Source of the DNA: a bacterium
GTDB lineage: Bacteria > Patescibacteriota > Minisyncoccia > Phycocordibacterales > Zambryskibacteraceae
Assembly: GCA_030649135.1 (NCBI GenBank)
Contig: JAUSGI010000004.1
Span: 34,089-98,088, forward strand
Length of the DNA stretch: 64,000 nt
Direction: 5' to 3'
Shown: piece by piece, positions 43,933 to 63,352 of the stretch
Layout: every line of letters begins with the position of its first letter
Position numbering within the stretch: the stretch's first letter is position 1
The notes under the pieces: generated by a model
Database searches by the model: none
Told to the model about the DNA's origin: nothing
What the model saw: only the letters and a program-made list of their open reading frames with translations
Made by a program: the position numbers and the translations under genes

Positions 43933-45258
43933 TCAGCTGTTCTTGTGCCACCCAACAAGCCTGTCAGAAATATTTGTAATACTCCCGGCTCCCATAAAAA
44001 GTAAGACATCCCCATTAGCAACCTCATTTTTAATTGTATGGAGTACATCTTTGAAATTTCTCACAAATCTAGTGGGTTGAGAAAGGGCAATTTTTTGGGC
44101 CAGACTTTTCGCGCCTCGATTTTTTTTAGAATCCGATTCGCGGCCCAGAACCGTATAAGTTTCGAGGATTATCACTTGGTCAGCTTCGTGGAAGGCCTTA
44201 GCAAAATCCGAAAAAAGTAAGGATAGACGTTCCGCTAGATGTGGCTGGAATATAACCCAAATTTTAGCTTTAGGAAATTTTTCTCTGGCACCGGATAATG
44301 TTGCTTTAATTTCCGTCGGGTGATGTGCATAATCATCGTAAATCTTCGCTTTTCTATATATACCGCGGTACTCGAATCTGCGCCACGTTCCCATAAATCT
44401 AGAAAATACCTTGTCTCGAACCAAAACTGGAATACCTAGAAAACTTCCCAATGTATCACAAGCCATTGCGTTTGAATGATTATGTGCTCCCGGAATTTTC
44501 AAGAGGGATTTTACTTTTGCTGCTCGTGCTCCTTGCCGATCATAATATGCTATCTTTGTCTTGGTCTTTAATTGTAACGATGCAAGATTTTTGTCTTCGT
44601 GGTTCAATACCAGATACCCATTCTCCTTCACCCTGCTGATAAAAGTACGGAAGGCTTTTTTAATATTTTCGAACGTCTTATAAAACTCAAGATGCTCCCG
44701 GTCAATATTGGTAATAATAGCTGCAAATGGAGTGTAATGAAGAAACGAGCCGTGGAACTCATCTGCCTCCAAAACAAGCCATTCTGACTTTCCCTTCCGA
44801 AAATTAGAATCACCAAACGCCTTTAGTCTCGTTCCCACTATGATAGTGGGGTCAAAGCCGGCTTTCAGAAGCATCAATCCTACTAACGCTGTCGTTGTGG
44901 ACTTTCCATGAGCGCCGGCGACTGCGATTGTCTTATAATTTTTCGTCAGCTCGCCAAGCGCTTCGGCGTAGGAAAATTGTGGAATTTTGAGTGACGTTGC
45001 CTTTTTACGTTCGGAATTTTCTTTTTTAACAGCGACACTATAAATCACACGCGAAACATCAGGACTAAGCCAGTTAGCGTTATGGAGGCCAGTATGTATT
45101 ACCGCACCATGACGAATTAAATTATTGGTGATAGGTGAACGAATAGCATCGGAGCCGGTAACATGCCAACCTTCCGAAAGATACCACTGTGCCAAAGCAG
45201 AGACACCAATACCACCAATCCCGACAAAATGTACTCTCCGGTTTTTTGCTTGGCTCAT
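43933..45258 (-). CDS. murC: UDP-N-acetylmuramate--L-alanine ligase
   Basis: VHFVGIGGIGVSALA N-terminal Mur ligase motif, central GTNGKTTT-like P-loop (GAHGKSTTT); start moved to MSQAKNRR because the ORF-track N-terminus translates the adjacent tRNA. Confidence 0.85.
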   Translation of the reverse strand: MSQAKNRRVHFVGIGGIGVSALAQWYLSEGWHVTGSDAIRSPITNNLIRHGAVIHTGLHNANWLSPDVSRVIYSVAVKKENSERKKATSLKIPQFSYAEALGELTKNYKTIAVAGAHGKSTTTALVGLMLLKAGFDPTIIVGTRLKAFGDSNFRKGKSEWLVLEADEFHGSFLHYTPFAAIITNIDREHLEFYKTFENIKKAFRTFISRVKENGYLVLNHEDKNLASLQLKTKTKIAYYDRQGARAAKVKSLLKIPGAHNHSNAMACDTLGSFLGIPVLVRDKVFSRFMGTWRRFEYRGIYRKAKIYDDYAHHPTEIKATLSGAREKFPKAKIWVIFQPHLAERLSLLFSDFAKAFHEADQVIILETYTVLGRESDSKKNRGAKSLAQKIALSQPTRFVRNFKDVLHTIKNEVANGDVLLFMGAGSITNISDRLVGWHKNS

Positions 45259-45268
45259 AGATAACGTG

Positions 45269-45342
45269 TCCACCCTCTTGGATTCGAACCAAGGACCCCA
45301 GAGGTATAAGCTCTGTGCTCTAACCAGCTGAGCTAAGGGTGG
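45269..45342 (-). tRNA. tRNA-Ile(UAU) (no encoded CCA; C1:G72)
   Basis: cloverleaf: acceptor CCACCCT/AGGGTGG, D-stem GCTC/GAGC, anticodon stem CAGAG/CTCTG with loop CTTATAC (anticodon TAT), T-arm CTTGG-TTCGAAT-CCAAG. Confidence 0.7.
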
Positions 45343-45370
45343 TATCAACACAATATCTCAAAATAGCGGT

Positions 45371-49171: not shown

Positions 49172-49447
49172 ATGGATGAAGGTGAGCAGGCAACCGAGTT
49201 CTGGTTGGACAAGAATCTCAGTTGTACCGAGTTCATCAAGGCGTTTGAGTCTCACTTTCAGGGAGGTCGGGTCGAAAGCCTATCCTTGGTGCGGGTTGCC
49301 AAGCCGGGGTACATGCTTTTCCATCTGAGTGTGCCGCTCGAGAGAAAAGGGGAGCTCCTCGTGTTTCTCCATGAGTACGCCGAGACACGCGACGCCGACA
49401 GCGATTGGAAGACGGCGGGCGTCCATCCATTCAATCTATTTTCATAA
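49172..49447 (+). CDS. small hypothetical protein, paralogue of 50949..51242
   Basis: shared EF(I/V)KAF..(H/Y)F.GG motif and near-identical upstream RBS context (GAGGAGGTGT.ATATG); G+C-richer. Confidence 0.35.
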   Translation: MDEGEQATEFWLDKNLSCTEFIKAFESHFQGGRVESLSLVRVAKPGYMLFHLSVPLERKGELLVFLHEYAETRDADSDWKTAGVHPFNLFS

Positions 49448-50948: not shown

Positions 50949-51242
50949 GTGATAAGGTATGAGAGGAGGTGTGATATGAGAGATGATATGCGGGTGAGCG
51001 AGTTCAGATTAGATGAAGATTTCGACCGTGACGAGTTCGTAAAGGCGTTCAAGACCTACTTCGAGGGAGGTGATGCCAAAGATCTGGAAGTTGTTCCCGA
51101 CGCGATTTTGTTTTATAAAGGACGAGTGTCGCTTATTCTACTATTCGCACGAATTAGAGATGTAGAGGGGGGGGATTGGGTTGACAATTCAAATAATATA
51201 TCATACACTTTTGAAAGAGCCACATGCGTGGCTATGCTCTAA
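50949..51242 (+). CDS. small hypothetical protein (paralogue of 49172..49447), C-terminal part overwritten by operator-repeat copy 4
   Basis: N-terminal 60 aa alignable to 49172 product; repeat copy at 51132..51160 lies inside the reading frame. Confidence 0.3.
   Translation: MIRYERRCDMRDDMRVSEFRLDEDFDRDEFVKAFKTYFEGGDAKDLEVVPDAILFYKGRVSLILLFARIRDVEGGDWVDNSNNISYTFERATCVAML
51132..51160. promoter_or_regulatory. operator-like inverted repeat copy 4 (variant core ATTCGCACGAAT)
   Basis: sequence match to copies 1-3. Confidence 0.4.
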
Positions 51243-52019: not shown

Positions 52020-52049
52020 GGGTTTGTAAGTGCCCCAAATTTGTGGGAT
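52020..52049 (+). promoter_or_regulatory. conserved TTTGT-N12-TTTGTGGGAT element, copy 1 (upstream of dinB); extended -10 TGTATAAT at 52076..52083
   Basis: three co-oriented copies (52020, 53323, 54521), each immediately 5' of a gene. Confidence 0.45.
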
Positions 52050-52089
52050 AGGGTCGGAACAGGAATATAGTCCGCTGTATAATGCTCGG

Positions 52090-53322
52090 ATGGCGCGAGA
52101 AAAGACCATTTTACATATGGATGGAGATGCCTTCTTCGTCGCCTGTGAGGTCTCGAAGAATCCCAAGCTCAAGGGTAAAGCAGTGGTGACAGGCGAGGAG
52201 CGCGGGATAGTCTCGGCCCTCTCATACGAAGCGAAGGCGCTTGGGGTAGTTAGAGGCATGCCGATATTTTCCTTGCGCAAATCGTTTCCAAGTGTCTTAG
52301 TGCTGCCGGGAGATTATGCTTGTTACGCGCGACTCTCGGGAGAAATGTTTGACATCGTGAGGAGGTATGCCGACGAGGTCGAGGAGTACAGTATCGATGA
52401 GTGTTTCGCCGATCTCTCCGGCCTAGATAAGCCGCTTAAAATGAGTTATAGAGAAATTGCGGAGCGGATAAAGAAAGAAATCGAAAGCGAACTTAGACTC
52501 TCTGTCTCTATCGGGCTCGGGCCCTCAAAGGGGCTCGCCAAGGTGGCGTCGAAGTGGCAGAAGCCCAATGGTCTTACAGTGATAGAAGCAAAGACGGCCC
52601 CAGATTTTCTCAAAAAGACTCCGATTGAGAAAATCTGGGGCATCGGCCCGCGCACAGCAGAGTTTCTAAAGAAGAAAGGAATAGGAACTGCCGGCGAGTT
52701 CGCCTCGCGTGAACTCGCCTGGGTCAGAAAGGAACTTTCCAAACCTTACGAAGTTATTTGGAGAGAGCTCAACGGTGAATACATCATGGAGTTAGACCCC
52801 TTGCCGAAGACTGTCTATTCCTCTGTCCAGAAGACAAGGACATTTCACCCGGCGACAGGGGACAAAGTCTTTCTCCTCTCCGAACTTTCTAAGCATGTGG
52901 AAGAAGCGTGCCGCAAGGCGAGGTACTACCACCTCGTACCGAAGAAGTTTTCTTTTTTCCTCAAGAGCCAGAGCTTCAAATATTTCTCTTACAATATAAA
53001 TCTTCCCTCGCCCACTAATGCTCCGGAGACGCTGGTCGCTCTAGTCCGTAAACATTTCAAAGAAGTTTGGAGAGAGGGAATACTCTTCCGTACCACTGGA
53101 GTGGTGTTGCAAGAGCTTGCTCCGAGAGCGGCAATGCAGGGAGATTTGTTCGGAGGCTCCGATAGAGCCGGTAAGTTTGAAAAGATTCATGGTCAGATCG
53201 ACGCTCTGGAAGAGAAGTTCGGCAAGTCGGTAGTCTATCTCGCCTCCACTCACCAGTCCCTGAAGCGTAAAAAGGTCGGCACCGACTCCGACGACCTCGA
53301 CCGCAACCTGCTGTTTTTGTGA
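52090..53322 (+). CDS. dinB: DNA polymerase IV (Y-family, DinB)
   Basis: HMDGDAFFVACE N-term (catalytic D..D/F), SIDE motif (YSIDECFADL), little-finger domain; start set at MAREKT. Confidence 0.85.
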   Translation: MAREKTILHMDGDAFFVACEVSKNPKLKGKAVVTGEERGIVSALSYEAKALGVVRGMPIFSLRKSFPSVLVLPGDYACYARLSGEMFDIVRRYADEVEEYSIDECFADLSGLDKPLKMSYREIAERIKKEIESELRLSVSIGLGPSKGLAKVASKWQKPNGLTVIEAKTAPDFLKKTPIEKIWGIGPRTAEFLKKKGIGTAGEFASRELAWVRKELSKPYEVIWRELNGEYIMELDPLPKTVYSSVQKTRTFHPATGDKVFLLSELSKHVEEACRKARYYHLVPKKFSFFLKSQSFKYFSYNINLPSPTNAPETLVALVRKHFKEVWREGILFRTTGVVLQELAPRAAMQGDLFGGSDRAGKFEKIHGQIDALEEKFGKSVVYLASTHQSLKRKKVGTDSDDLDRNLLFL

Positions 53323-53352
53323 GGGTTTGTTTTAAGCCAAAATTTGTGGGAT
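53323..53352 (+). promoter_or_regulatory. conserved TTTGT-N12-TTTGTGGGAT element, copy 2 (upstream of ATPase gene)
   Basis: see copy 1. Confidence 0.45.
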
Positions 53353-53372
53353 TATTTTGTGCAAGTATATTT

Positions 53373-54518
53373 ATGGATGTAGAAATAAAGAAACAACCAA
53401 AAACCAGCATTACTGAGGATATTGATTGTGTAATTAAGCTTGAGCCACTTACAATTTTTGCTGGGAATAATAATTCAGGTAAGACTCATTTGATTAACGC
53501 TATAGGGAAAAAACTGTCTGAGAATGACATAAATGTTGTGCATATCCCAAGTGAGAGGATACTTGTAGAGAATGAATTGAAGACAGGAGCAGAAAAGGAT
53601 CCATTAAGAGCGGCTCTCGGTGATTTGATTGAGTTTGCTTTTGATGCCGACAGTTCAATCTCTAGTGATGTTTCTGATATCTCAGTAATACTTCCTGCTG
53701 AATTTATACAATATGGTATTGAGAATATAGATATTTCGGTAAAGACAAACACTCTCACTAACGATGAATATAAAAAAGCTTTAAAAGATGCTCACATAAA
53801 AAAGCTTATCGATTCCATAGTTATATCTGACAAATACTGTGGAGTTGAGGACATAAGTCCATCAAATGTGGGTCAAGGAACACAAAGAATGATTGTCGTT
53901 TCTCTAATTAGATATCTACAGCGTAAAAAATTTGAGAAGGATGGTCGAACAAGTAAACCAACATATATTATTTTTGAAGAACCAGAGATATACCTTCACC
54001 CAAAAATGAAGGCAACCTTGTATGCACTAATTCAAGCCATAGCTAATGATGGAAGATTGAATACTAAAGTTATCTTAACTACCCACGACCCATACTTTAT
54101 TGATATGGGTAGAAATGCAAAAATTTATCGGGTCTTTAGGGATCCTTTGAAGAATTTTTCTACACAATTAATGGATGTACAAAAAGACGTATTACTGTAC
54201 CCATCTTCTGCAGAAATAAACTATATTGTATTTGAGCAGGTTAGCCCTACTTATTTACTTGAATTGTATGAAAGTAAAAAACAAGAAACTGAATTAAAGC
54301 TTGGAAAGAAGTTGGGAGGTCTTAAGTATTATGAATTCGATCTAGCTTTATTTAATAAAATTGGAGAACCTCAATCTTCTACTGATGATGATGGACATCC
54401 CGTTACGTTTATAACTCGGATAAGGCATGATATGGCACACCCCTCTACCTCCATATTAGATTCTTTTGAGTCTAGAGGAAAGGAAGCTATTGAAAAATTA
54501 AGAAATTACAAAGCTTAA
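53373..54518 (+). CDS. ABC/SMC-type (AAA_21/OLD-like) ATPase
   Basis: Walker A GNNNSGKT, Walker B IIFEEPEIYLHP, H-loop ILTTHDPYF; start reset to MDVEIKK (ORF track 53319 would overlap dinB stop and the repeat element). Confidence 0.7.
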   Translation: MDVEIKKQPKTSITEDIDCVIKLEPLTIFAGNNNSGKTHLINAIGKKLSENDINVVHIPSERILVENELKTGAEKDPLRAALGDLIEFAFDADSSISSDVSDISVILPAEFIQYGIENIDISVKTNTLTNDEYKKALKDAHIKKLIDSIVISDKYCGVEDISPSNVGQGTQRMIVVSLIRYLQRKKFEKDGRTSKPTYIIFEEPEIYLHPKMKATLYALIQAIANDGRLNTKVILTTHDPYFIDMGRNAKIYRVFRDPLKNFSTQLMDVQKDVLLYPSSAEINYIVFEQVSPTYLLELYESKKQETELKLGKKLGGLKYYEFDLALFNKIGEPQSSTDDDGHPVTFITRIRHDMAHPSTSILDSFESRGKEAIEKLRNYKA

Positions 54519-54520
54519 AT

Positions 54521-54550
54521 CTGTTTGTAAAACTCTAAAATTTGTGGGAT
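54521..54550 (+). promoter_or_regulatory. conserved TTTGT-N12-TTTGTGGGAT element, copy 3 (upstream of HNH gene, followed by RBS GGAGG)
   Basis: see copy 1. Confidence 0.45.
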
Positions 54551-54565
54551 ATTTGGAGGACAAAC

Positions 54566-55753
54566 ATGGAAGATGAAATAAAGCGATATTTTGAGGGCAT
54601 AGATCTTGATATTCGGAAGCAATCTCGGGGCTATTCACGCTTCATGGATCAGAAAGTTGCTCCAGATGTCCTGTCTTTTATTGCTGATTCTGTAGTCAAT
54701 TCTATGGATGGAAAGGAGCCTGGTACCACCTTTACCATTGGTGATGTATGGGAGTTTCCTTACTTTGTAAAAAATACAGAAGCTGTATTCGGGAAACCCT
54801 CTCCAGAAAATGAAACCACGGAATCTGAGTATGATAAATTTATCGCCCAGCCCTTAAAAACCCTTGCTTTTGCTAAGATTCTGGAAGAAGAAAAAGTTGG
54901 AGGGAAAAATACATATAAGGTTCTAAGGCCCGATATTTTGGAGTATATTTCTCAAAGCGAGAAAAACGCCTTTATATTTTTAGTCCTCTATATTGAAAAG
55001 GTTTTATCTGACAGTGGATTCATAAAAAACTTCGAGGAATATAGGGAAAAGGCGCAGTCAAATAAACTAAAACCAGAAGATCTTGAAATATTAAAAAAAA
55101 GATTCCAAAAATTCATTTTGGGCAATACCAATATAAATGGCGTAATAGAAATAAATAGAGTATTTCCGAAAGTTCTAAATCCTTATGCAGCTTCACATCA
55201 AATTCCAGGAATAGAAAGGGGGCACATAACTTCTGGTAGATTTATTTACCCAGATCTCATGTATAACCGAGAAAATTTTAGGGACATTGGAAAAGACAAG
55301 ACTGTAAGTAGACAAGAAGCGTTAAGAGAAATTACTCAGCAGCCAGAAGTTGTTGAATATCGAGTTCAAAAAGCAAAAAGTATTATACGGCGCCATCATT
55401 CAAGTAGTGAGGTTAAGGATAGCTTGGCAGTAGGCGAAGCGACTCAGGTTCATCATATTTTTTCAGACCATGAATTTCCTGAAATATCTGATTATATTGA
55501 AAACCTTATTTTACTAACACCTCAGCAGCACAACACAAGAGCTCATCCAAAAAATAAAACAAATACCGTTGACGCAGAGTATCAAAGGGAATGCTTGTTA
55601 TCTAAAATTGATTCGATTGAGATGTCCGTAAGTAAGCGAGACAGCCTGTATTCTAAGGAAAGATTTATACACGTTGTGAATATTGGCTATGAACTTGATC
55701 TCTCGACAAATACTAGTTTTGAAGAATTGAGAGATATTATTCGAAAGAGATAG
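54566..55753 (+). CDS. HNH endonuclease-domain protein (C-terminal HNH, ~280-aa unknown N-terminal region)
   Basis: VHHIFSDHEFPE...ENLILLTPQQHNTRAH: H-N-H spacing; start reset to MEDEIKRYF after RBS. Confidence 0.6.
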   Translation: MEDEIKRYFEGIDLDIRKQSRGYSRFMDQKVAPDVLSFIADSVVNSMDGKEPGTTFTIGDVWEFPYFVKNTEAVFGKPSPENETTESEYDKFIAQPLKTLAFAKILEEEKVGGKNTYKVLRPDILEYISQSEKNAFIFLVLYIEKVLSDSGFIKNFEEYREKAQSNKLKPEDLEILKKRFQKFILGNTNINGVIEINRVFPKVLNPYAASHQIPGIERGHITSGRFIYPDLMYNRENFRDIGKDKTVSRQEALREITQQPEVVEYRVQKAKSIIRRHHSSSEVKDSLAVGEATQVHHIFSDHEFPEISDYIENLILLTPQQHNTRAHPKNKTNTVDAEYQRECLLSKIDSIEMSVSKRDSLYSKERFIHVVNIGYELDLSTNTSFEELRDIIRKR

Positions 55754-55757
55754 TTTT

Positions 55758-58277
55758 CTAGCGATTTATGCCAAAAAAGAATACTGAATTATTGTCGATG
55801 TTTAAAGATCTGGTACCGTGATTCCTTGCTACTCGATAAAATTGGGTGAATTCGTCTGTTCCAAAATAATCAAGGTCTTTTAGAGTTATCTTAGCTCCGG
55901 GTTCTTTTAGGGTGAGGATTGCCACAGACCCATCAACAAGCGTGTTCTCTGGTAAAAATGAAGCTCTGGGAGCATAGGTCAGGTTTGGCACCAAGACGCT
56001 ATTTTCTTTATTCCAAAACTTAGAGATTGATAACCCGTCTAACGAATCAACATAAGAGTCATAATTTGGAATGTTCAGGATCTCATTTCGTCCGATATTT
56101 CTTGATTTCAATATTCTTATTTTCCCCTTGTTTTTTGTTATCTTTTTTGTAATTTGTCGATCTCTGTAAGATGTAAATATATTGAATCGAAGTTTTTTTG
56201 CAACGAAGTCAAAGAATTCATTTCTGTACACCAACCAGTAAGGAAAATCTTTCGAACAAATATAAGATTGATCTTTATAACCAATTTCGTTTTTTACATA
56301 AGACTCAACGAGAGTCCGGGCCCCTTTATTACGAGTATTGATAATCAAACTGATTGTCTCAATCTTCACACCCCTGAACCCTTTTTCTCCATAGTCTGTG
56401 ATTTTTTCAATGGCAAATGACGAAGCAAGTTCTCTTGTTTTGTTAAATTCGGGTGCTGATAGAAAACTTTTGGGAATAATAAGACCTACGGTATCTCCTT
56501 GTTGCATTGCTTTCTCGAGAAAAAAAGAAAATAGATTATTTGTTTCGGCATTATATTTATTCTTCTTATAAGTGTTTAGGAGAACTTTATTTTCAGATAT
56601 ATCTCCGAATGGTGGATTGCCAATAACGATATCGTATCTTTTAGATTGGCCAAATAAATTAGTCTCTCCATGCAATAGAAAATCTGCGTTAATTAAATTG
56701 ATCTTGATATTTTTTGGAACATCAAGTTTTTTTAGTAAAAGTTTAAGAATCTCAATTGCATTTTTGTCGATATCAACTACATCAATAGTTACCTCCTTAA
56801 CTGTTTTATATTTTTGAACAAGAAGCGGGAGAAAATTACCAGCACCGACTGATGGTTCTAATATAGAAAGTTTTTCAAACTTTGATACATCAGGAAGATC
56901 TTTTACTATAGTGAAGCAAATGTCCTGTCTGGTGTAATACGCGGCGTGCTGAAGACGTTGGGCATTTGAAAGCTCGACGATTTTAGCTAATTCGGGGTAG
57001 CTAAAATTTTGCATATTCTCTTCGAGAAAAGTCTTAATATTTTCTTCTATATTAAGCCTTTCATCTTGGATTAATTTTTTTATTTGGATTTCATTATTTT
57101 CAACATTTCTAAGCTTTGACTTGATATTTTTAGCTATACCGTTGAATATAATTGTGGGGACTGCCTCACCTAGTGATTGTCTTATATTTATCTCTTCTTT
57201 CTTGAGAATTTTCCTCTTTTCTTCATTTGACAACTTATTTAATTCATCAAGCGGAGTAGATACCCAATTAAAAGAATCTGGTACGGACATCATTCTCATT
57301 AACTCTCTAATACTAAATACCCTGTTATCTTTTGGATGAATGGTTGCTTGGCTCGCAAATATATCGTTTCGGGTATGTATACAAGGAGCAACTTTATCCC
57401 AATAACATCGTGAGTATTTATCTCCGTTCTTGTTTTCATTGTGTACAATCTTTCCGTTTATGATTTGGTGAGGTCGCTTTTTGGCATCAGTATTATCAAA
57501 CGCAGATTGTCCCTCCTTGGTATTCTCAATCCAAGAAAGCATATGCTCAGCGTACGGACGAAAATTGTGATAGATGTCCTTTTTATCAATCTCACCCATA
57601 TTTTTAAGAGATGAAAGGTTGCCTATCGTATCACGCAAGGTACCACCATCTTTCAATACTGGCATTAGATCAAGAGGTGTAACTTCTTGAATATCTTTTC
57701 GTACTCCTATAACGAGTGTTCGGGTTCTACTCGATGGATTACCATAATCTTTGAAATTGATTACTTGATAGTGGATGTTATATTTACCTCCAAGATTTAC
57801 TTCAATTGCTTCACGAATTTGTTTTTGTTTCTTATCGATGTCAGTGCAGAGTGTAGATAGAAAAGCCCTCACATTCTCAAATATAAAAACTTTCGGTCTA
57901 ATTTCATCTACAATTTTTATTGATTCAACGACAAGAGAATTTCGTTCAAGCTCATCCCTTTTTTTGTGATTGGCTACAGACATACCCTGACATGGGGGTG
58001 TTGCCAATAAAACTTCAACTTCTTTTAAACCTTGCTTTGATTTCCAGAGATCAATTTCTGAAAATATTTTTTCTTGAGTGGCTTTTTTTGTGATGTCATC
58101 AGCAATATAACCACTTGGATATAAACACTTATTATTATGTCTTTGCACATCCAAACGTCTGTTCATAAGTTCAACAGTTGCAACACAATCAAATCCTTCT
58201 TTAGAAAAACCATAGCAACCAACGCCGGCGCTACTGAATAAACTTATATATGTTAATTTTTTATTTTGGTTTTTCAT
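55758..58277 (-). CDS. bifunctional DNA methyltransferase: N-terminal C5-cytosine MTase fused to C-terminal gamma-class N6-adenine MTase (Eco57I/TaqI-like)
   Basis: C5 motifs I (LFSSAGVGCYG), IV (PPCQGMS), VI (ENV), VIII (SRTRT), X (GEAVP); then adenine-MTase motif I (LEPSVGAGNFL) and IV (NPPFGD) + TaqI-C-like TRD. Confidence 0.8.
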   Translation of the reverse strand: MKNQNKKLTYISLFSSAGVGCYGFSKEGFDCVATVELMNRRLDVQRHNNKCLYPSGYIADDITKKATQEKIFSEIDLWKSKQGLKEVEVLLATPPCQGMSVANHKKRDELERNSLVVESIKIVDEIRPKVFIFENVRAFLSTLCTDIDKKQKQIREAIEVNLGGKYNIHYQVINFKDYGNPSSRTRTLVIGVRKDIQEVTPLDLMPVLKDGGTLRDTIGNLSSLKNMGEIDKKDIYHNFRPYAEHMLSWIENTKEGQSAFDNTDAKKRPHQIINGKIVHNENKNGDKYSRCYWDKVAPCIHTRNDIFASQATIHPKDNRVFSIRELMRMMSVPDSFNWVSTPLDELNKLSNEEKRKILKKEEINIRQSLGEAVPTIIFNGIAKNIKSKLRNVENNEIQIKKLIQDERLNIEENIKTFLEENMQNFSYPELAKIVELSNAQRLQHAAYYTRQDICFTIVKDLPDVSKFEKLSILEPSVGAGNFLPLLVQKYKTVKEVTIDVVDIDKNAIEILKLLLKKLDVPKNIKINLINADFLLHGETNLFGQSKRYDIVIGNPPFGDISENKVLLNTYKKNKYNAETNNLFSFFLEKAMQQGDTVGLIIPKSFLSAPEFNKTRELASSFAIEKITDYGEKGFRGVKIETISLIINTRNKGARTLVESYVKNEIGYKDQSYICSKDFPYWLVYRNEFFDFVAKKLRFNIFTSYRDRQITKKITKNKGKIRILKSRNIGRNEILNIPNYDSYVDSLDGLSISKFWNKENSVLVPNLTYAPRASFLPENTLVDGSVAILTLKEPGAKITLKDLDYFGTDEFTQFYRVARNHGTRSLNIDNNSVFFFGINR

Positions 58278-58281
58278 GAAT

Positions 58282-58896
58282 TTATAGTGTTCTAATTATT
58301 TTTTCTACTATACCCCTAATCTCAACTTGTTTTCGGTAAAAAGGTTTGAGGTTTTTATTTGCAGGCTGTAATCTGATTTTCCCTTTTTCCTTATATATTT
58401 TTTTAAGTGTTACTTGATTGTCGTCAATGATGGCCACGGCAGTTTGTCCATTATCAGCTACGTTTTGAGATCGAATGACAACAATATCTCCATCAAAGAT
58501 TCCATCCTCAATCATACTGTCTCCTTTAACCTGTAGCGCATAGTGTTGAAAAGGTAGTTTGATATCACTTCTCGGGACGGTAATTGTTTTTTCGTTTATT
58601 TCCATTGCTTCAATAGGCTCTCCAGCTGCAATACTACCAAGCAGTGGAATTTCTACGGTCGATTTTTCTTTCATCGTAGAAATAGTTCTTGGTTGATTTT
58701 CTTCTTTTGTGAGTAAACCCTTTTTTTGTAAGTGTTTAATGTGGAAATGGGCTGTTGAGACGGAAGCAAGTTTAAAATTTTGCTGTATTTCTACTAAAGA
58801 GGGAGCATACCCATTCTTTTTTTGTGATTGCTTCACAAAATCTAGAACCATTTTTTGTTTTTTAGTAAGCATAGATATTGACATACTATTTATCAC
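58282..58896 (-). CDS. lexA: LexA repressor (HTH + S24 autopeptidase), translationally coupled to downstream MTase
   Basis: LexA DNA-binding wHTH, Ala-Gly cleavage site (SIAAGEP), catalytic Ser (GDSM) and Lys (TLKK); 4-nt gap to MTase start. Confidence 0.85.
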   Translation of the reverse strand: MINSMSISMLTKKQKMVLDFVKQSQKKNGYAPSLVEIQQNFKLASVSTAHFHIKHLQKKGLLTKEENQPRTISTMKEKSTVEIPLLGSIAAGEPIEAMEINEKTITVPRSDIKLPFQHYALQVKGDSMIEDGIFDGDIVVIRSQNVADNGQTAVAIIDDNQVTLKKIYKEKGKIRLQPANKNLKPFYRKQVEIRGIVEKIIRTL

Positions 58897-58997
58897 GGAG
58901 GTATACTTCCATTATAGAAGGAAAATAGAAGGTCTACAAGACCTACTTATCCACACCTCCTATATAAAGATCGAATTAGTAATAGTTCTAAAAAAAT

Positions 58998-59204
58998 ATG
59001 GCAAAACCTAAATACATAGCAAAGTCTGGTCAGCCTTGGGCTCCAGCTGAAGTAAAACAGTTGAAAAGCATGGGAGGCAGGGTGCCTACTGGCGTTATTG
59101 GTTTGAAACTTCAGAGACCAGTTGCAGGAGTACGGGCAAAAGCTCAAGAAATCGGCATGAGTTTGAAGCCGGTAAATAAATCGCCACGATCAAAGCTTAA
59201 ATAG
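58998..59204 (+). CDS. small basic hypothetical protein (68 aa)
   Basis: divergent from lexA; shares upstream block CTTATCCACACC.CTATAT.AAAGAT with the second lexA copy's divergent region. Confidence 0.3.
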   Translation: MAKPKYIAKSGQPWAPAEVKQLKSMGGRVPTGVIGLKLQRPVAGVRAKAQEIGMSLKPVNKSPRSKLK

Positions 59205-59563: not shown

Positions 59564-60043
59564 ATGGATAAAAATAATACAAATGAATTGAGTGCTGTTT
59601 TATCTGGAGTAGCCGGGGAGTATTTTGTTGCCGGTGAGTTATCGAGAAGAGGATTTCTTGCTTCGATCACCCTTAGAAATACTAAAGGGGTTGATATCCA
59701 ATGTTCAAATGGAGACGCTAGTAAATCAGTCAGCATACAAGTAAAAACAAATAAGGGTTCATCTAGAAAATGGGTTATGAACCGCAAGGCCGAGGATTAT
59801 TATGCTGATAATCTTTTCTATATTTTTGTGAATCTAAATGACAATAAAAAATCTCCAGATTATTTTGTGGTACCGAGTAAAGTCGCTGCGGAATATACAA
59901 AAAAGAATCATATTGAATGGCTAGGAAGGCCAAGACGTGATGGTAATCCTCACAAAGATAACGACATGAGAAAATTTGTTGACTTAGAAGAAAGGTACTT
60001 AAATCGCTGGGAATTGCTTGGGCTGGATATTCAAATTATATAG
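59564..60043 (+). CDS. PD-(D/E)xK-like nuclease-fold protein (hypothetical)
   Basis: GEY...GVDI...SIQVKT arrangement matches E...D...(E/Q)xK restriction-endonuclease-like core. Confidence 0.3.
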   Translation: MDKNNTNELSAVLSGVAGEYFVAGELSRRGFLASITLRNTKGVDIQCSNGDASKSVSIQVKTNKGSSRKWVMNRKAEDYYADNLFYIFVNLNDNKKSPDYFVVPSKVAAEYTKKNHIEWLGRPRRDGNPHKDNDMRKFVDLEERYLNRWELLGLDIQII

Positions 60044-60578: not shown

Positions 60579-60668
60579 GGAGCCGTCGCATAGTGGTCTA
60601 GTGCGCCTCACTGCTAACGAGGTAGGGTCTAAAAGCCCTCGAGGGTTCAAATCCCTCCGGCTCCGCCA
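60579..60668 (+). tRNA. tRNA-Ser(GCU), class II with long variable arm, CCA encoded
   Basis: acceptor GGAGCCG/CGGCTCC, 3-bp D-stem, anticodon loop CTGCTAA, variable arm GGG..CCC, T-arm GAGGG-TTCAAAT-CCCTC, discriminator G, CCA. Confidence 0.85.
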
Positions 60669-60716
60669 GATGACCAAGTTTGAACCGAAGCAAAATAAGG
60701 ATATATTACCCAAATT

Positions 60717-61418
60717 ATGACCCTACTAGAACTCAAACGAAAATTGAGAGCCATTCAAGCTCTCGGATTTGTAAAGACACATCGTACAGGTGATACAGGC
60801 ATTGGGAAAACGCTCGAGGATCTTCTTGGTATTAAAGAAAACAATATCCCACTTCCTGATATCGGCGAAATAGCAGAACTCAAAGCATATCGAAAAAATG
60901 CAACATCAATGCTGACGCTTTTTACGCTTGAACCTCGACCTAAAGGTGGAGATCGCGATCGAGTACTTCTGGATAGTTTTGGCTATTCAAAAAGAGATAA
61001 TGGTCGCTCAAAAGAATTGCATAGCACTCTTTCGTGTAAGCGTTACAACAATCAAGGTCTGAAGCTCAAGGTTGAGAAAGATAAAGTGCGAGTCGTTGGC
61101 AAAGGCAGGAGATTAAATATTTACTGGGACATGGAGGATCTCCAAAAGAAATTCGAGGCAAAATTGCCAGCCTTAGTATATGCACTAGCAGACTGTAAAG
61201 AAGTAAGAGGTGTCGAGCATTTCCATTTTAACCAAGCTTTCTTTTTAGAGGGCTTCGATTTTGAACACTTCAAAAGTCTGGTAAAGAAAGACGCCATTGT
61301 TGTAGATTTTAGAATGTTTTATCGTCCAAGTGGCTCCGTCCGTAATCACGGCACTGGTTTTAGGGTAAAAATAAAACAACTCTATAACTGCTTCGACACA
61401 AAGGTTGAGCTGATTTAA
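60717..61418 (+). CDS. MvaI/BcnI-family type II restriction endonuclease (candidate)
   Basis: 233 aa (family is monomeric ~230-260 aa); GIKENNIPLPDIGEIAELK matches the family's ENN..L.D.GE.ELK PD-ExK region as I recall it; convergent/overlapping with an SPPY MTase. Confidence 0.5.
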   Translation: MTLLELKRKLRAIQALGFVKTHRTGDTGIGKTLEDLLGIKENNIPLPDIGEIAELKAYRKNATSMLTLFTLEPRPKGGDRDRVLLDSFGYSKRDNGRSKELHSTLSCKRYNNQGLKLKVEKDKVRVVGKGRRLNIYWDMEDLQKKFEAKLPALVYALADCKEVRGVEHFHFNQAFFLEGFDFEHFKSLVKKDAIVVDFRMFYRPSGSVRNHGTGFRVKIKQLYNCFDTKVELI

Positions 61419-63280
61419 TTTTTTCTCAAAACAACAATACTTTCTTTGTTCATCGTTTCCTCTAATGCACCCACGATATTTGTCGGAGAGTTTTTGATCG
61501 GCATTCTTTTGCCGGGAATATTTCGAACTATTATATCTTCGCAAGTAAATCCTATTTTTTCTGCTAATTCAGCAATAATAAAATCGGTGGGAATTCGCAC
61601 TTGTTTAACTAATCTATTTCCAACAACGAGACAGAAGTACTTTTTTGGTTTGAGTACCCTATGTGCTTGTTTCAAGCATTCATTTAAGCCTATATTAAAA
61701 CTCAATACATCTCTTGCTCTTGCCTCATCTTGCTTGGCGATTTTTTCTAATGATTCTTTGAGATAATCGGATGAAAGTATATGAGTTAGATTCTTGCTGG
61801 CTCTACCCCCAAGAAGATTATTGTCTACAGCAGAAGCATCGTTTGGATCATCAAAAACATCAATCCACTGCGCCGAAAGGCGAGAAAACTGTCCATAAGC
61901 AACTGTAGTGCGACTATCGCCATATGGAGGTGAGGTAATGATGCAATCAATAGAATTTGCTTTTATACCACTATCTTTCGACGAATCGCCGTAGATGATT
62001 TTTGTCCACGTATCCTTTTTTGCATCTTTATAAAAGGCAGTCATTCCGGCAATATTTTTCTCTGCATTTTTTCGAAATATGCCTAGAACATCAGGATCAT
62101 GCTTCTCTAGTTTTTCTCCCTTAACACGCACTAACTTGAATTCACCGGTCTTTGTGTTTGAGGAATACCGAACTGTCTCACTAAAAGCAACCATCAAGAA
62201 ATTTTGAATGGTCTCGTCTTTTATTTCTCTTATAGCTTTCTTTAGTTTTGCAAGTTTAACTATTACCTTATCCTTGAACCAAAAATCAATATTCTTAAAA
62301 TCTGGTCTTTTTATTTCGTTATCCTTTATTTTTTCTACTCTGCTGAGCAGGGCAATGTATTCCTTCGTTAGTTTTTGTGGATTGATTGGAGTTGTTTTTG
62401 CTTTTGCAAGAAAAATGGCTAAAGGATTGAGATCAATGCCGTAGGCATTTCTTCCTATTAACCTACTTTCAACTAAAGCTGAACCAGAGCCACAAAAAAT
62501 ATCGCAAATGGTATCACCCTCCTTGCTATAAGTCTCTAACAATCTTCGTCCGACTTGTGGGATAAACATTGCCGGATAAGTATGTATTCCGTGCGTATGT
62601 GATTTTGTTTTTTCTCCCCTGTAATCCCATGAATAATCTATTTTACGCACATACTTTTCATCTCTCGACTGTCCTTGATCTAGTTGTGATTCAAGATTGC
62701 GAATAATCTTAACGACAACACCTCTCACTTCTACTTCATCACGATAAATTGGGAATAGAGTTGGGTTTGCCGGTTGTAATCTAAACTTTCCATTCTCACG
62801 ATATAATTTTTTGAGCGTTGCTTGGTTGTCGTCTATCACAGCTACGACGGTCTGACCATTTTCTGCTACCTCTTGTTTGCGTATAACAACAATATCACCG
62901 TCAAAAATACCTTCATCGATCATACTGCTACCTTGAACACGCAGGGCATAATGTTTACCTTGCTTTCCAATTTCATCTTTTGCTATTGTAATAGTCTCAT
63001 CGGAAATTTCCATGGCCTCAATGGGCTGTCCAGCAGCGATTGCTCCAAGAATAGGAATCTCGATCATCTGCTTTGCTTCCACTGTGGAAACAGCACGAGG
63101 TTGGTTGTGTTCTTTATTCAAAAAGCCAGCATCTTGGAGTTTGCTGATGTAATAGTGGGATGTCGAAACAGAGGCAAGCTTAAATTTCTTCTTGATCTCC
63201 TCAAGAGAGGGGGCGTAGCTGTGCTTTGCCATATAAGCTTTTATGAAATCTAGGACTTGTGTTTGCTTTTTTGTGAGCAT
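61415..63280 (-). CDS. LexA-DNA methyltransferase fusion: full LexA (aa 1-~200) fused in frame to SPPY-type (N4-C/N6-A) MTase (aa ~215-621)
   Basis: LexA part paralogous to 58282..58896 incl. AG cleavage site, Ser (GSSM) and Lys (TLKK); MTase motif X/I (HTYPAMFIPQ...DIFCGSGS) and motif IV (ITSPPYGD); single uninterrupted ORF. Confidence 0.75.
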   Translation of the reverse strand: MLTKKQTQVLDFIKAYMAKHSYAPSLEEIKKKFKLASVSTSHYYISKLQDAGFLNKEHNQPRAVSTVEAKQMIEIPILGAIAAGQPIEAMEISDETITIAKDEIGKQGKHYALRVQGSSMIDEGIFDGDIVVIRKQEVAENGQTVVAVIDDNQATLKKLYRENGKFRLQPANPTLFPIYRDEVEVRGVVVKIIRNLESQLDQGQSRDEKYVRKIDYSWDYRGEKTKSHTHGIHTYPAMFIPQVGRRLLETYSKEGDTICDIFCGSGSALVESRLIGRNAYGIDLNPLAIFLAKAKTTPINPQKLTKEYIALLSRVEKIKDNEIKRPDFKNIDFWFKDKVIVKLAKLKKAIREIKDETIQNFLMVAFSETVRYSSNTKTGEFKLVRVKGEKLEKHDPDVLGIFRKNAEKNIAGMTAFYKDAKKDTWTKIIYGDSSKDSGIKANSIDCIITSPPYGDSRTTVAYGQFSRLSAQWIDVFDDPNDASAVDNNLLGGRASKNLTHILSSDYLKESLEKIAKQDEARARDVLSFNIGLNECLKQAHRVLKPKKYFCLVVGNRLVKQVRIPTDFIIAELAEKIGFTCEDIIVRNIPGKRMPIKNSPTNIVGALEETMNKESIVVLRKN

Positions 63281-63352
63281 AATAGTATTATAGAAAATAA
63301 ATAGAAAGTATACAAATCAACTTATCCACACCCTATATTAAAGATTAAAAAA

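Follow-up and report, generated by a model that had tools for sequence, protein, structure and literature searches.

A LexA-headed methyltransferase operon in a putative HpyAV/Hin4II-family restriction–modification module from Patescibacteria

A stretch of 64,000 nucleotides (nt) from a 98-kb contig of a Patescibacteria metagenome-assembled genome (assembly GCA_030649135.1, contig JAUSGI010000004.1, positions 34,089 to 98,088; hereafter the window) was analyzed in this study, with a focus on three adjacent genes that encode a restriction endonuclease (REase), a DNA methyltransferase (MTase) and the repressor LexA. Housekeeping genes (FtsH, Mur ligase and RecG) with a GC content of 46–50% make up the flanks, and GC content drops to 34–40% from 53.3 kb onward, where an island begins. 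The gene dinB at the edge of this low-GC island (52090–53322, + strand; GC content about 49%) encodes DNA polymerase IV with IMS, IMS_C and HHH domains and likely starts at the ATG at 52090 rather than at the GTG at 52030. It is followed on the same strand by a gene for an ABC-type AAA_15/AAA_21 ATPase without a nuclease domain (53373–54518) and by the REase gene (54566–55753), whose product combines a winged-helix N-terminal part with a C-terminal HNH motif. The opposite strand carries a gene for an MTase of 839 amino acids (aa), in which C5-cytosine and N6-adenine methylase domains are fused (55758–58277), and the stop codons of the REase and MTase genes converge with a gap of 4 nt (55754–55757). 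LexA (196 aa; 58282–58872, − strand) is encoded by the first gene of the lexA-MTase operon, with a spacer of only 4 nt (58278–58281) between its stop codon and the ATG of the MTase gene; comparison with its paralogue and homologues indicates that lexA most likely starts at the ATG at 58872 and not at the GTG at 58896. These five open reading frames (ORFs) and both 4-nt intervals lie exactly where the original prediction had placed them. That prediction suggested that the four genes after dinB make up one damage-inducible defence unit matching no named system, and it overlooked a second LexA in the window, which is fused to a methylase.

The REase and MTase appear to form a Type IIS restriction–modification (R-M) pair of the named HpyAV/Hin4II family, an assignment based on the MTase profile lengths and the HNH traits of the REase. 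HpyAV and Hin4II endonucleases are HNH enzymes of 418–419 aa that cut CCTTC 6/5, and their methylases M.HpyAV, M1.Hin4II and M2.Hin4II have lengths of 823, 387 and 445 aa (PMC2816704). The window MTase, in which Pfam recognizes DNA_methylase (residues 9–340) and Eco57I/N6_Mtase (residues 443–652) domains, matches end to end three PADLOC profiles of exactly these lengths (823, 387 and 445 positions; 2e-231, 1e-149 and 6e-89), and it has the C5 plus N6A methylase, fused or split, that is a feature of the family. No Pfam match was found for the REase, which over its full length matches the Type II REase profile PDLC03488 (PADLOC; 5e-94); this profile is REBASE-derived and unlabelled, and the REase may directly resemble R.HpyAV or R.Hin4II. 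A total of 1233 relatives of the REase were counted. Residues H296, H297, N313, H322 and H327 are invariant in an alignment of 24 homologues, a structure model places a strand-strand-helix at residues 294–326, and PHROG gives an HNH match (4.5e-5), in agreement with the HNH (beta-beta-alpha-metal) motif that HpyAV/Hin4II REases carry near residues 287–325. The HNH protein thus appears, as originally proposed, to be the nuclease of an R-M system whose partner is a two-domain m5C/m6A MTase of the kind acting at asymmetric Type IIS sites, while the suggestion that no named system matches gives way to the HpyAV/Hin4II assignment. The suggested likeness to Esp3I/Eco31I did not survive either: TIGR02987 matched only in part and reached 57.6 bits against a cutoff of 353.5, which removes an Esp3I/Eco31I/Alw26I-like identity. 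From family membership and site conservation, the recognition site is probably CCTTC, a sequence that the genes of the module, 4.3 kb in all, contain only once.

Both LexA proteins of the window pass the lexA equivalog model TIGR00498 (187.6 bits for the LexA at 58282–58872 and 175.3 bits for the fused LexA; cutoff 110.95), contain the winged helix-turn-helix (HTH) domain LexA_DNA_bind and the S24 domain according to Pfam, and are 63% identical to each other. The second copy belongs to a second R-M system, which directly follows a tRNA-Ser(gct) gene (60579–60668, + strand) and consists of an REase gene of the MvaI/BcnI family (60717–61418, + strand) and, overlapping it by 4 nt on the − strand, a gene for a LexA-MTase fusion of 621 aa (61415–63280), in which LexA occupies residues 1–196 and is joined to an m4C methylase (an N4/N6 MTase of the PspGI/MvaI type). 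This fusion is present in more than 120 clusters at 89–100% identity in many Patescibacteria lineages. Elsewhere it was seen beside the same REase and a C protein, together with a serine recombinase in three loci. In the window, the C gene that elsewhere precedes the MvaI-type REase has been lost and its leader kept. CCWGG is the second most under-represented 5-mer of the window (observed/expected 0.61).

The residues needed for self-cleavage appear to be retained across this group, as A84 and G85 (the Ala-Gly bond), S119 and K156 (Escherichia coli numbering) are invariant in a six-sequence LexA alignment that covers the window LexA. The same residues can be seen in two additional and distinct LexA-MTase fusions (475 and 485 aa; loci L091 and L098), each convergent with a putative nuclease gene; both were found by searching for a 28-nt upstream element described below, not for LexA. 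An exhaustive search with the 196-aa LexA was evaluated through its 50 closest 50%-cluster representatives, 45 of which are longer than 255 aa; 34 of these have at least 378 aa with LexA at residues 1–196. Eight of 10 sampled representatives carry DNA methylase domains, which are of four kinds (N6_N4; D12; Eco57I/N6 with TaqI_C; and M.Eco57I_C). Because its nearest relatives are mostly N-terminal MTase fusions with the cleavage residues kept, the 196-aa LexA can be regarded as the unfused version of a large LexA family dedicated to methylases.

Gene neighborhoods were compared by tblastn in 80 REase loci obtained from a scan of species-representative genomes. Wherever the contig reaches far enough among these 80 loci, the fused MTase adjoins the REase. 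In Bacteroidota loci, R follows M on the same strand and LexA is lacking, and in Patescibacteria loci M and R are convergent, with lexA immediately upstream of M in eight of 17 such loci. LexA is genuinely coupled to the MTase, as was originally proposed from the 4-nt spacer. The LexA proteins next to M fall into two clades, with 78–97% identity (L010, L011, L013 and L016; clade 1) and 34–36% identity (L018, L023, L024 and L027; clade 2). Clade-2 loci retain a classical C gene before R; the small HTH_3 gene and C-box that precede the REase under C-protein control are absent from both window systems and present in clade-2 and MvaI-type relatives. The flanks of lexA-M-R vary from locus to locus, and the trio travels as one unit among Patescibacteria contexts, usually beside tRNA-Ser: a tRNA-Ser gene precedes the REase in L010, L013 and L016, and L011 begins right after the 3′ end of a tRNA. 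The tRNA-Ser gene is an insertion landmark of these R-M modules.

The sequence that follows the tRNA-Ser 3′ end is conserved (CCGCCAGAT..CCAAGTTTGAAC..AAAATAAG; within window positions 60579–60716) and is common to the tRNA-Ser/MvaI-REase junction of the window and the tRNA/HpyAV-like REase junctions of L010, L011, L013 and L016; one and the same spot thus takes in different R-M modules.

The lexA-MTase promoter (58911–58955, − strand) comprises a −10 box TATAAT (58911–58916), a −35 box TTGTAG, two CCTTC sites (GAAGG at 58917 and 58928 on the + strand) that form a CTTC-N7-CTTC direct repeat, and a perfect DnaA-box 9-mer, TGTGGATAA, at 58947–58955 (− strand). The promoter of the fusion gene (63293–63330) has the same 9-mer at 63322–63330 (− strand) and a TTTC-N7-TTTC repeat. 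Among 14 lexA or lexA-MTase promoter regions, the 9-mer (TGTGGATAA/TTATCCACA) was present in 13, about 38–39 nt upstream of the −10 box (shuffle mean 0.02), and a YTTC-N7-YTTC direct repeat in 11 (shuffle mean 0.42). Within the island this repeat stands in promoter position only at the two lexA promoters; at the window lexA promoter it overlaps the spacer and the −10 box. In Patescibacteria, LexA reportedly recognizes a direct repeat (PMC7739468), and YTTC-N7-YTTC is therefore a candidate LexA operator. The 9-mer may not belong to the LexA site but be a genuine input for DnaA. A palindrome of several lexA leaders, AAGTATACTT, was also considered as operator and discarded because it is not enriched in the window (four matches against 1.7 expected).

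When promoters were read individually, convergent loci in which M has its own promoter showed a single CCTTC exactly 20 nt before TATAAT, over the −35 box. Of the 17 convergent loci, 12 have CCTTC no more than 120 nt from the MTase ATG (shuffle mean 1.6), and co-directional loci avoid it before M, with 1 in 50 loci against 5.9 expected. This placement supports CCTTC specificity and methylation-sensitive autoregulation. On the + strand, a strong divergent promoter (TTGACA-18-TATACT; 58878–58907) shares sequence with the lexA 5′ leader and is directed at a 68-aa ORF (58998–59204, + strand). As the −10 boxes of the two promoters are only 3 nt apart, their use is probably mutually exclusive. The 68-aa product is basic, matches weakly a PHROG transcriptional regulator and is 90–96% conserved beside lexA in L011 and L013; it is possibly an accessory protein or a regulator.

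Taken together, these data point to a mobile R-M module of the HpyAV/Hin4II family whose methylase gene comes second, after that of a dedicated LexA, in an operon that DNA damage probably de-represses, thereby raising methylation; we give this reading a probability of about 0.6. In the mechanism that we infer, LexA would repress its own lexA-M promoter, probably at YTTC-N7-YTTC, and thereby hold the methylase at a low, steady level. Single-stranded DNA and RecA, arising from breaks, repair synthesis or cutting of under-methylated sites by the module's own nuclease, would stimulate LexA self-cleavage at Ala-Gly; the lexA-M operon would then be de-repressed and more methylation would follow, which would amount to restriction alleviation of a Type II kind. 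In a host new to the module, where LexA is lacking, the methylase would be expressed first. Promoter methylation may act as a further control, in that the CCTTC cognate sites in the promoter could add a methylation-dependent feedback, and the perfect DnaA box suggests a possible input of replication status.

Several observations weigh against this interpretation. The CCTTC specificity is drawn from family membership and site conservation, and the operator was assigned by motif alone. In clade 1, the direct repeat and the two CCTTC sites fall on the same positions and are inseparable as signals, and the DnaA-box 9-mer also occurs in the promoter of a LexA-less M gene (L055) and may be unrelated to LexA. 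Related modules without LexA exist (L014, L019, L055, L069 and Saccharibacteria loci), and no recA was found in the 64-kb window. A literature search, including a keyword search of Aravind 2013, found no description of LexA tied to R-M systems or methylases, although work on Patescibacteria SOS networks may contain an earlier description.

The LexA at 58282–58872 might instead be the general SOS repressor of the host, with the R-M genes as its neighbors by chance or as an addiction device that supplies the only LexA of the cell. In favor of this, the lexA equivalog model accepts both window LexAs, another LexA may be lacking in the small genomes of Patescibacteria, and dinB is close by. However, the GC content of lexA is about 33–35%, as in the island, against 46–50% in the host; the lexA-M-R trio recurs in unrelated flanks; the window contains a pair of LexAs less than 5 kb apart, both of them linked to a methylase; and the closest LexA relatives are mostly MTase fusions. 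Furthermore, the motifs of the lexA promoters (the repeat and the 9-mer) were not found at the dinB promoter. We consider a host SOS repressor unlikely.

A different type of upstream signal links the REase gene with the genes before it. The motif AAAATTTGTGGGAT occurs exactly at 53339 and 54537 and with one mismatch at 52036 before dinB (three matches against 1.1 expected), and all three window copies extend to GTTTGT-N9-AAATTTGTGGGAT, which delimits a 28-nt element. All three copies are on the + strand before their genes: copy 1 (52022–52049) is separated from the dinB ATG by 40 nt, copy 2 (53325–53352; sub-type B) from the ATPase ATG by 20 nt, and copy 3 (54523–54550; sub-type A) from the REase ATG by 15 nt, with a GGAGG Shine-Dalgarno sequence after copy 3. 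A shared element before the ATPase and HNH genes had been noticed originally; the copy before dinB had been missed. GTTTGT-N9-AAATTTGTGGGAT was found in 19 metagenome contigs, about 12 of which have the longer consensus in two sub-types. In metagenome contigs it stands 6–22 nt before the starts of genes for a Tag glycosylase, two MazG-like proteins, a Bro-N protein, an EndoVII-like nuclease, a TaqI-like REase, and T5orf172 and PIN_8 proteins. The element resembles a sigma-70-like promoter (TTGTAA, 17 nt, TGgGATAGT), has an imperfect palindrome within its conserved spacer, and appears to be a recurrent promoter-like module before repair and nuclease genes. None of the 89 loci collected prior to the search for the element contains it, so it is missing from the other HpyAV-like loci; the window REase and ATPase genes have thus acquired a host-type promoter shared with dinB.

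Arrays of co-directional genes with one copy of the element each were observed in L094, in L106 and in the window. Three further identities of the element were discarded: an RNA structure, as the three copies fold differently (z-scores +1.4, −0.4 and −1.8); a Bacteroidetes −33/−7 promoter or an integron attC site, as by eye the spacing and core sites do not fit; and identity of its TGTGGGATA with the TGTGGATAA of lexA promoters, as the two are alike but differ by an inserted base and were not treated as one site.

The element leaves room for another explanation, in which LexA represses the REase through it, so that damage or phage attack induces restriction, as SOS-triggered suicide or hyper-restriction, together with dinB and other genes driven by the element. 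This idea draws on three LexA-linked modules that are independent of one another (the window, L091 and L098) and have the element before the REase, L091 and L098 having been found through the element and not through LexA; on its occurrence before dinB, tag, a Bro-N/DinD-like gene and MazG-like genes; and on its imperfect palindrome and TTTGT direct repeat. Set against this, the element is missing from the lexA promoters as well as from the 89 earlier loci, it is only partly like TGTGGATAA, LexA is lacking in L102, L105 and L107, which are the longer loci with the element, and the element reads equally well as a plain sigma-70-like promoter (TTGTAA-17-TGgGATAGT). Damage-induced restriction by this route is therefore quite improbable in our judgment. 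Of the "SOS-wired" character originally ascribed to the whole locus, the part that concerns the methylase operon is plausible through LexA, while for dinB, the ATPase and the REase it is backed only by the shared element.

The ATPase and dinB do not belong to the R-M module. Pfam, NCBIfam and PADLOC searches confirmed the ATPase as AAA_15/AAA_21, and Pfam and PADLOC gave no nuclease or Toprim domain; its other matches cover the ATPase core only (AriA profile positions 262–373; OLD 6p74 at 1e-7). Neither the ATPase nor dinB was found beside the REase in any of the 80 REase loci, and in the five loci of ATPase homologues (L005–L009) the window REase was found in none. These homologues are instead accompanied by two N6_N4 methylases, by an Eco57I-type MTase and a Tsp45I REase, by a following DUF2779 gene (twice) or by a preceding EVE gene, and stand beside three unrelated R-M systems in three of five contexts. 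The ATPase is therefore an independent defence-island gene without a conserved REase partner, and dinB is a host gene outside the R-M module whose linkage is local to this genome; the only link of either to the REase is the shared promoter-like element.

The original proposal of one damage-inducible, ATP-dependent or Septu-like unit, composed of ATPase, HNH protein, MTase and LexA and anchored at dinB, must be weighed against these data. The genes are contiguous and those from dinB to the REase share orientation and the upstream element, and ATPase homologues do adjoin R-M systems. However, no ATPase homologue sits with the window REase, which leads us to reject the ATP-dependent or Septu-like reading: the two never co-occur in either set of loci, dinB is likewise never a neighbor, the PtuA model gives the ATPase 18 bits against a cutoff of 500, the ATPase carries no nuclease or Toprim domain, and the HNH protein has its cognate MTase at every locus. 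The neighborhood data have thus already largely refuted the single unit, and its remaining probability is very low. Septu (PtuA plus PtuB) was discarded on the same counts, and the OLD, Gabija GajA and PARIS AriA families were discarded because only the ATPase core matches, Toprim is missing, and the neighbors are DUF2779, EVE or R-M genes.

The 380-aa AAA_15/AAA_21 ATPase family (L005, L007, L008 and L009) recurs next to unrelated R-M systems. In two cases, an ATPase homologue near pheST is immediately followed by a DUF2779 protein of about 500 aa, possibly as a two-gene defence pair, which is absent in the window.

Compared with HpyAV and Hin4II, the window system has an HNH endonuclease in the same range of about 390–420 aa with the motif near residues 290–325, a C5 plus N6A methylase, which occurs fused (823 aa, M.HpyAV) or split (387 plus 445 aa), and homologues in Bacteroides and environmental samples. 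It differs in that its genes are convergent, whereas M precedes R co-directionally in HpyAV and Hin4II; in that its methylase is the second gene of a LexA-headed operon; in that its REase bears a host-type promoter element; and in that CCTTC, which those enzymes cut 6/5, is here a probable site. The ATPase of the window resembles those of Septu, OLD, Gabija and PARIS in its AAA_15/AAA_21 ABC fold and in adjoining an HNH protein, but this pairing is unconserved, the ATPase has no Toprim or nuclease partner, and the HNH protein is a methylase-partnered REase.

With regard to regulation, methylases of the SsoII/Ecl18kI/EcoRII/MspI type contain an N-terminal regulatory HTH, and C proteins control R-M systems (for a review, see PMC3874152). 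The window locus resembles both in that a DNA-binding domain attached to the methylase, or encoded beside it, would autoregulate M, and the clade-2 and MvaI-type relatives keep a classical C protein upstream of R. The regulator of the window, however, is a full LexA with a winged HTH and an S24 self-cleaving domain, and repression would therefore be releasable by RecA and DNA damage, an input that C proteins or SsoII-type domains are not known to receive. The promoter of the CfrBI methylase is reportedly methylation-sensitive, with a cognate site in its −35 region (Beletskaya et al., NAR 2000). The CCTTC located 20 nt before TATAAT in the individually read promoters of convergent loci is similar; by contrast, the case made here rests on conservation, and the LexA operon has two sites, between −35 and −10. 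In Type I restriction alleviation, which follows DNA damage, ClpXP degrades HsdR. The outcome proposed here would be alike, namely less self-restriction when repair yields unmethylated DNA, but the route would be transcriptional, with LexA cleavage leading to more methylase and not to proteolysis of the nuclease. The core R-M system is thus a known one, and the LexA wiring is a new variant that would, if confirmed, constitute a new class of R-M control.

Some other parts of the window deserve brief mention. A 159-aa ORF between lexA and tRNA-Ser (59564–60043) matches the phage family PHROG 29029 (5e-19). In the upstream flank, ARAGORN identified a tRNA-Ile gene with the unusual anticodon TAT (45268–45342, − strand) inside the 5′ end of the Mur ligase ORF (43933–45351), indicating that the GTG start of this ORF is probably over-extended. 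ORFs 49172–49447 (91 aa) and 50949–51242 (97 aa) share the motif EF(I/V)KAF..(H/Y)F(Q/E)GG and look like paralogues; they lie within a GC-rich stretch that immediately precedes dinB.

R-M systems are the main known defence of Patescibacteria, which are poor in CRISPR. A LexA tied or fused to an R-M methylase appears to be an undescribed link between self-protection and the SOS signal. More broadly, and only tentatively, a Patescibacteria clade of LexA may have been recruited as cleavable controllers of R-M methylases, fused to them or translationally coupled, so that damage, including self-restriction, would raise methylation, with promoters that integrate LexA, their own methylation state and DnaA; this would represent both a new class of R-M control and a new function of LexA. 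It has long been asked how Type II systems spare their host when repair, recombination or establishment gives rise to unmethylated DNA, and a methylase wired to, or fused with, an SOS repressor that cleaves itself would, if true, be a simple and testable answer. LexA-MTase fusions are compact and easy to assay in vitro. If true, the known controllers of R-M systems would extend beyond C proteins and SsoII-type domains. The results also suggest that many "LexA" annotations in candidate-phyla genomes denote R-M regulators and not global SOS regulators, which would affect reconstructions of their regulons.

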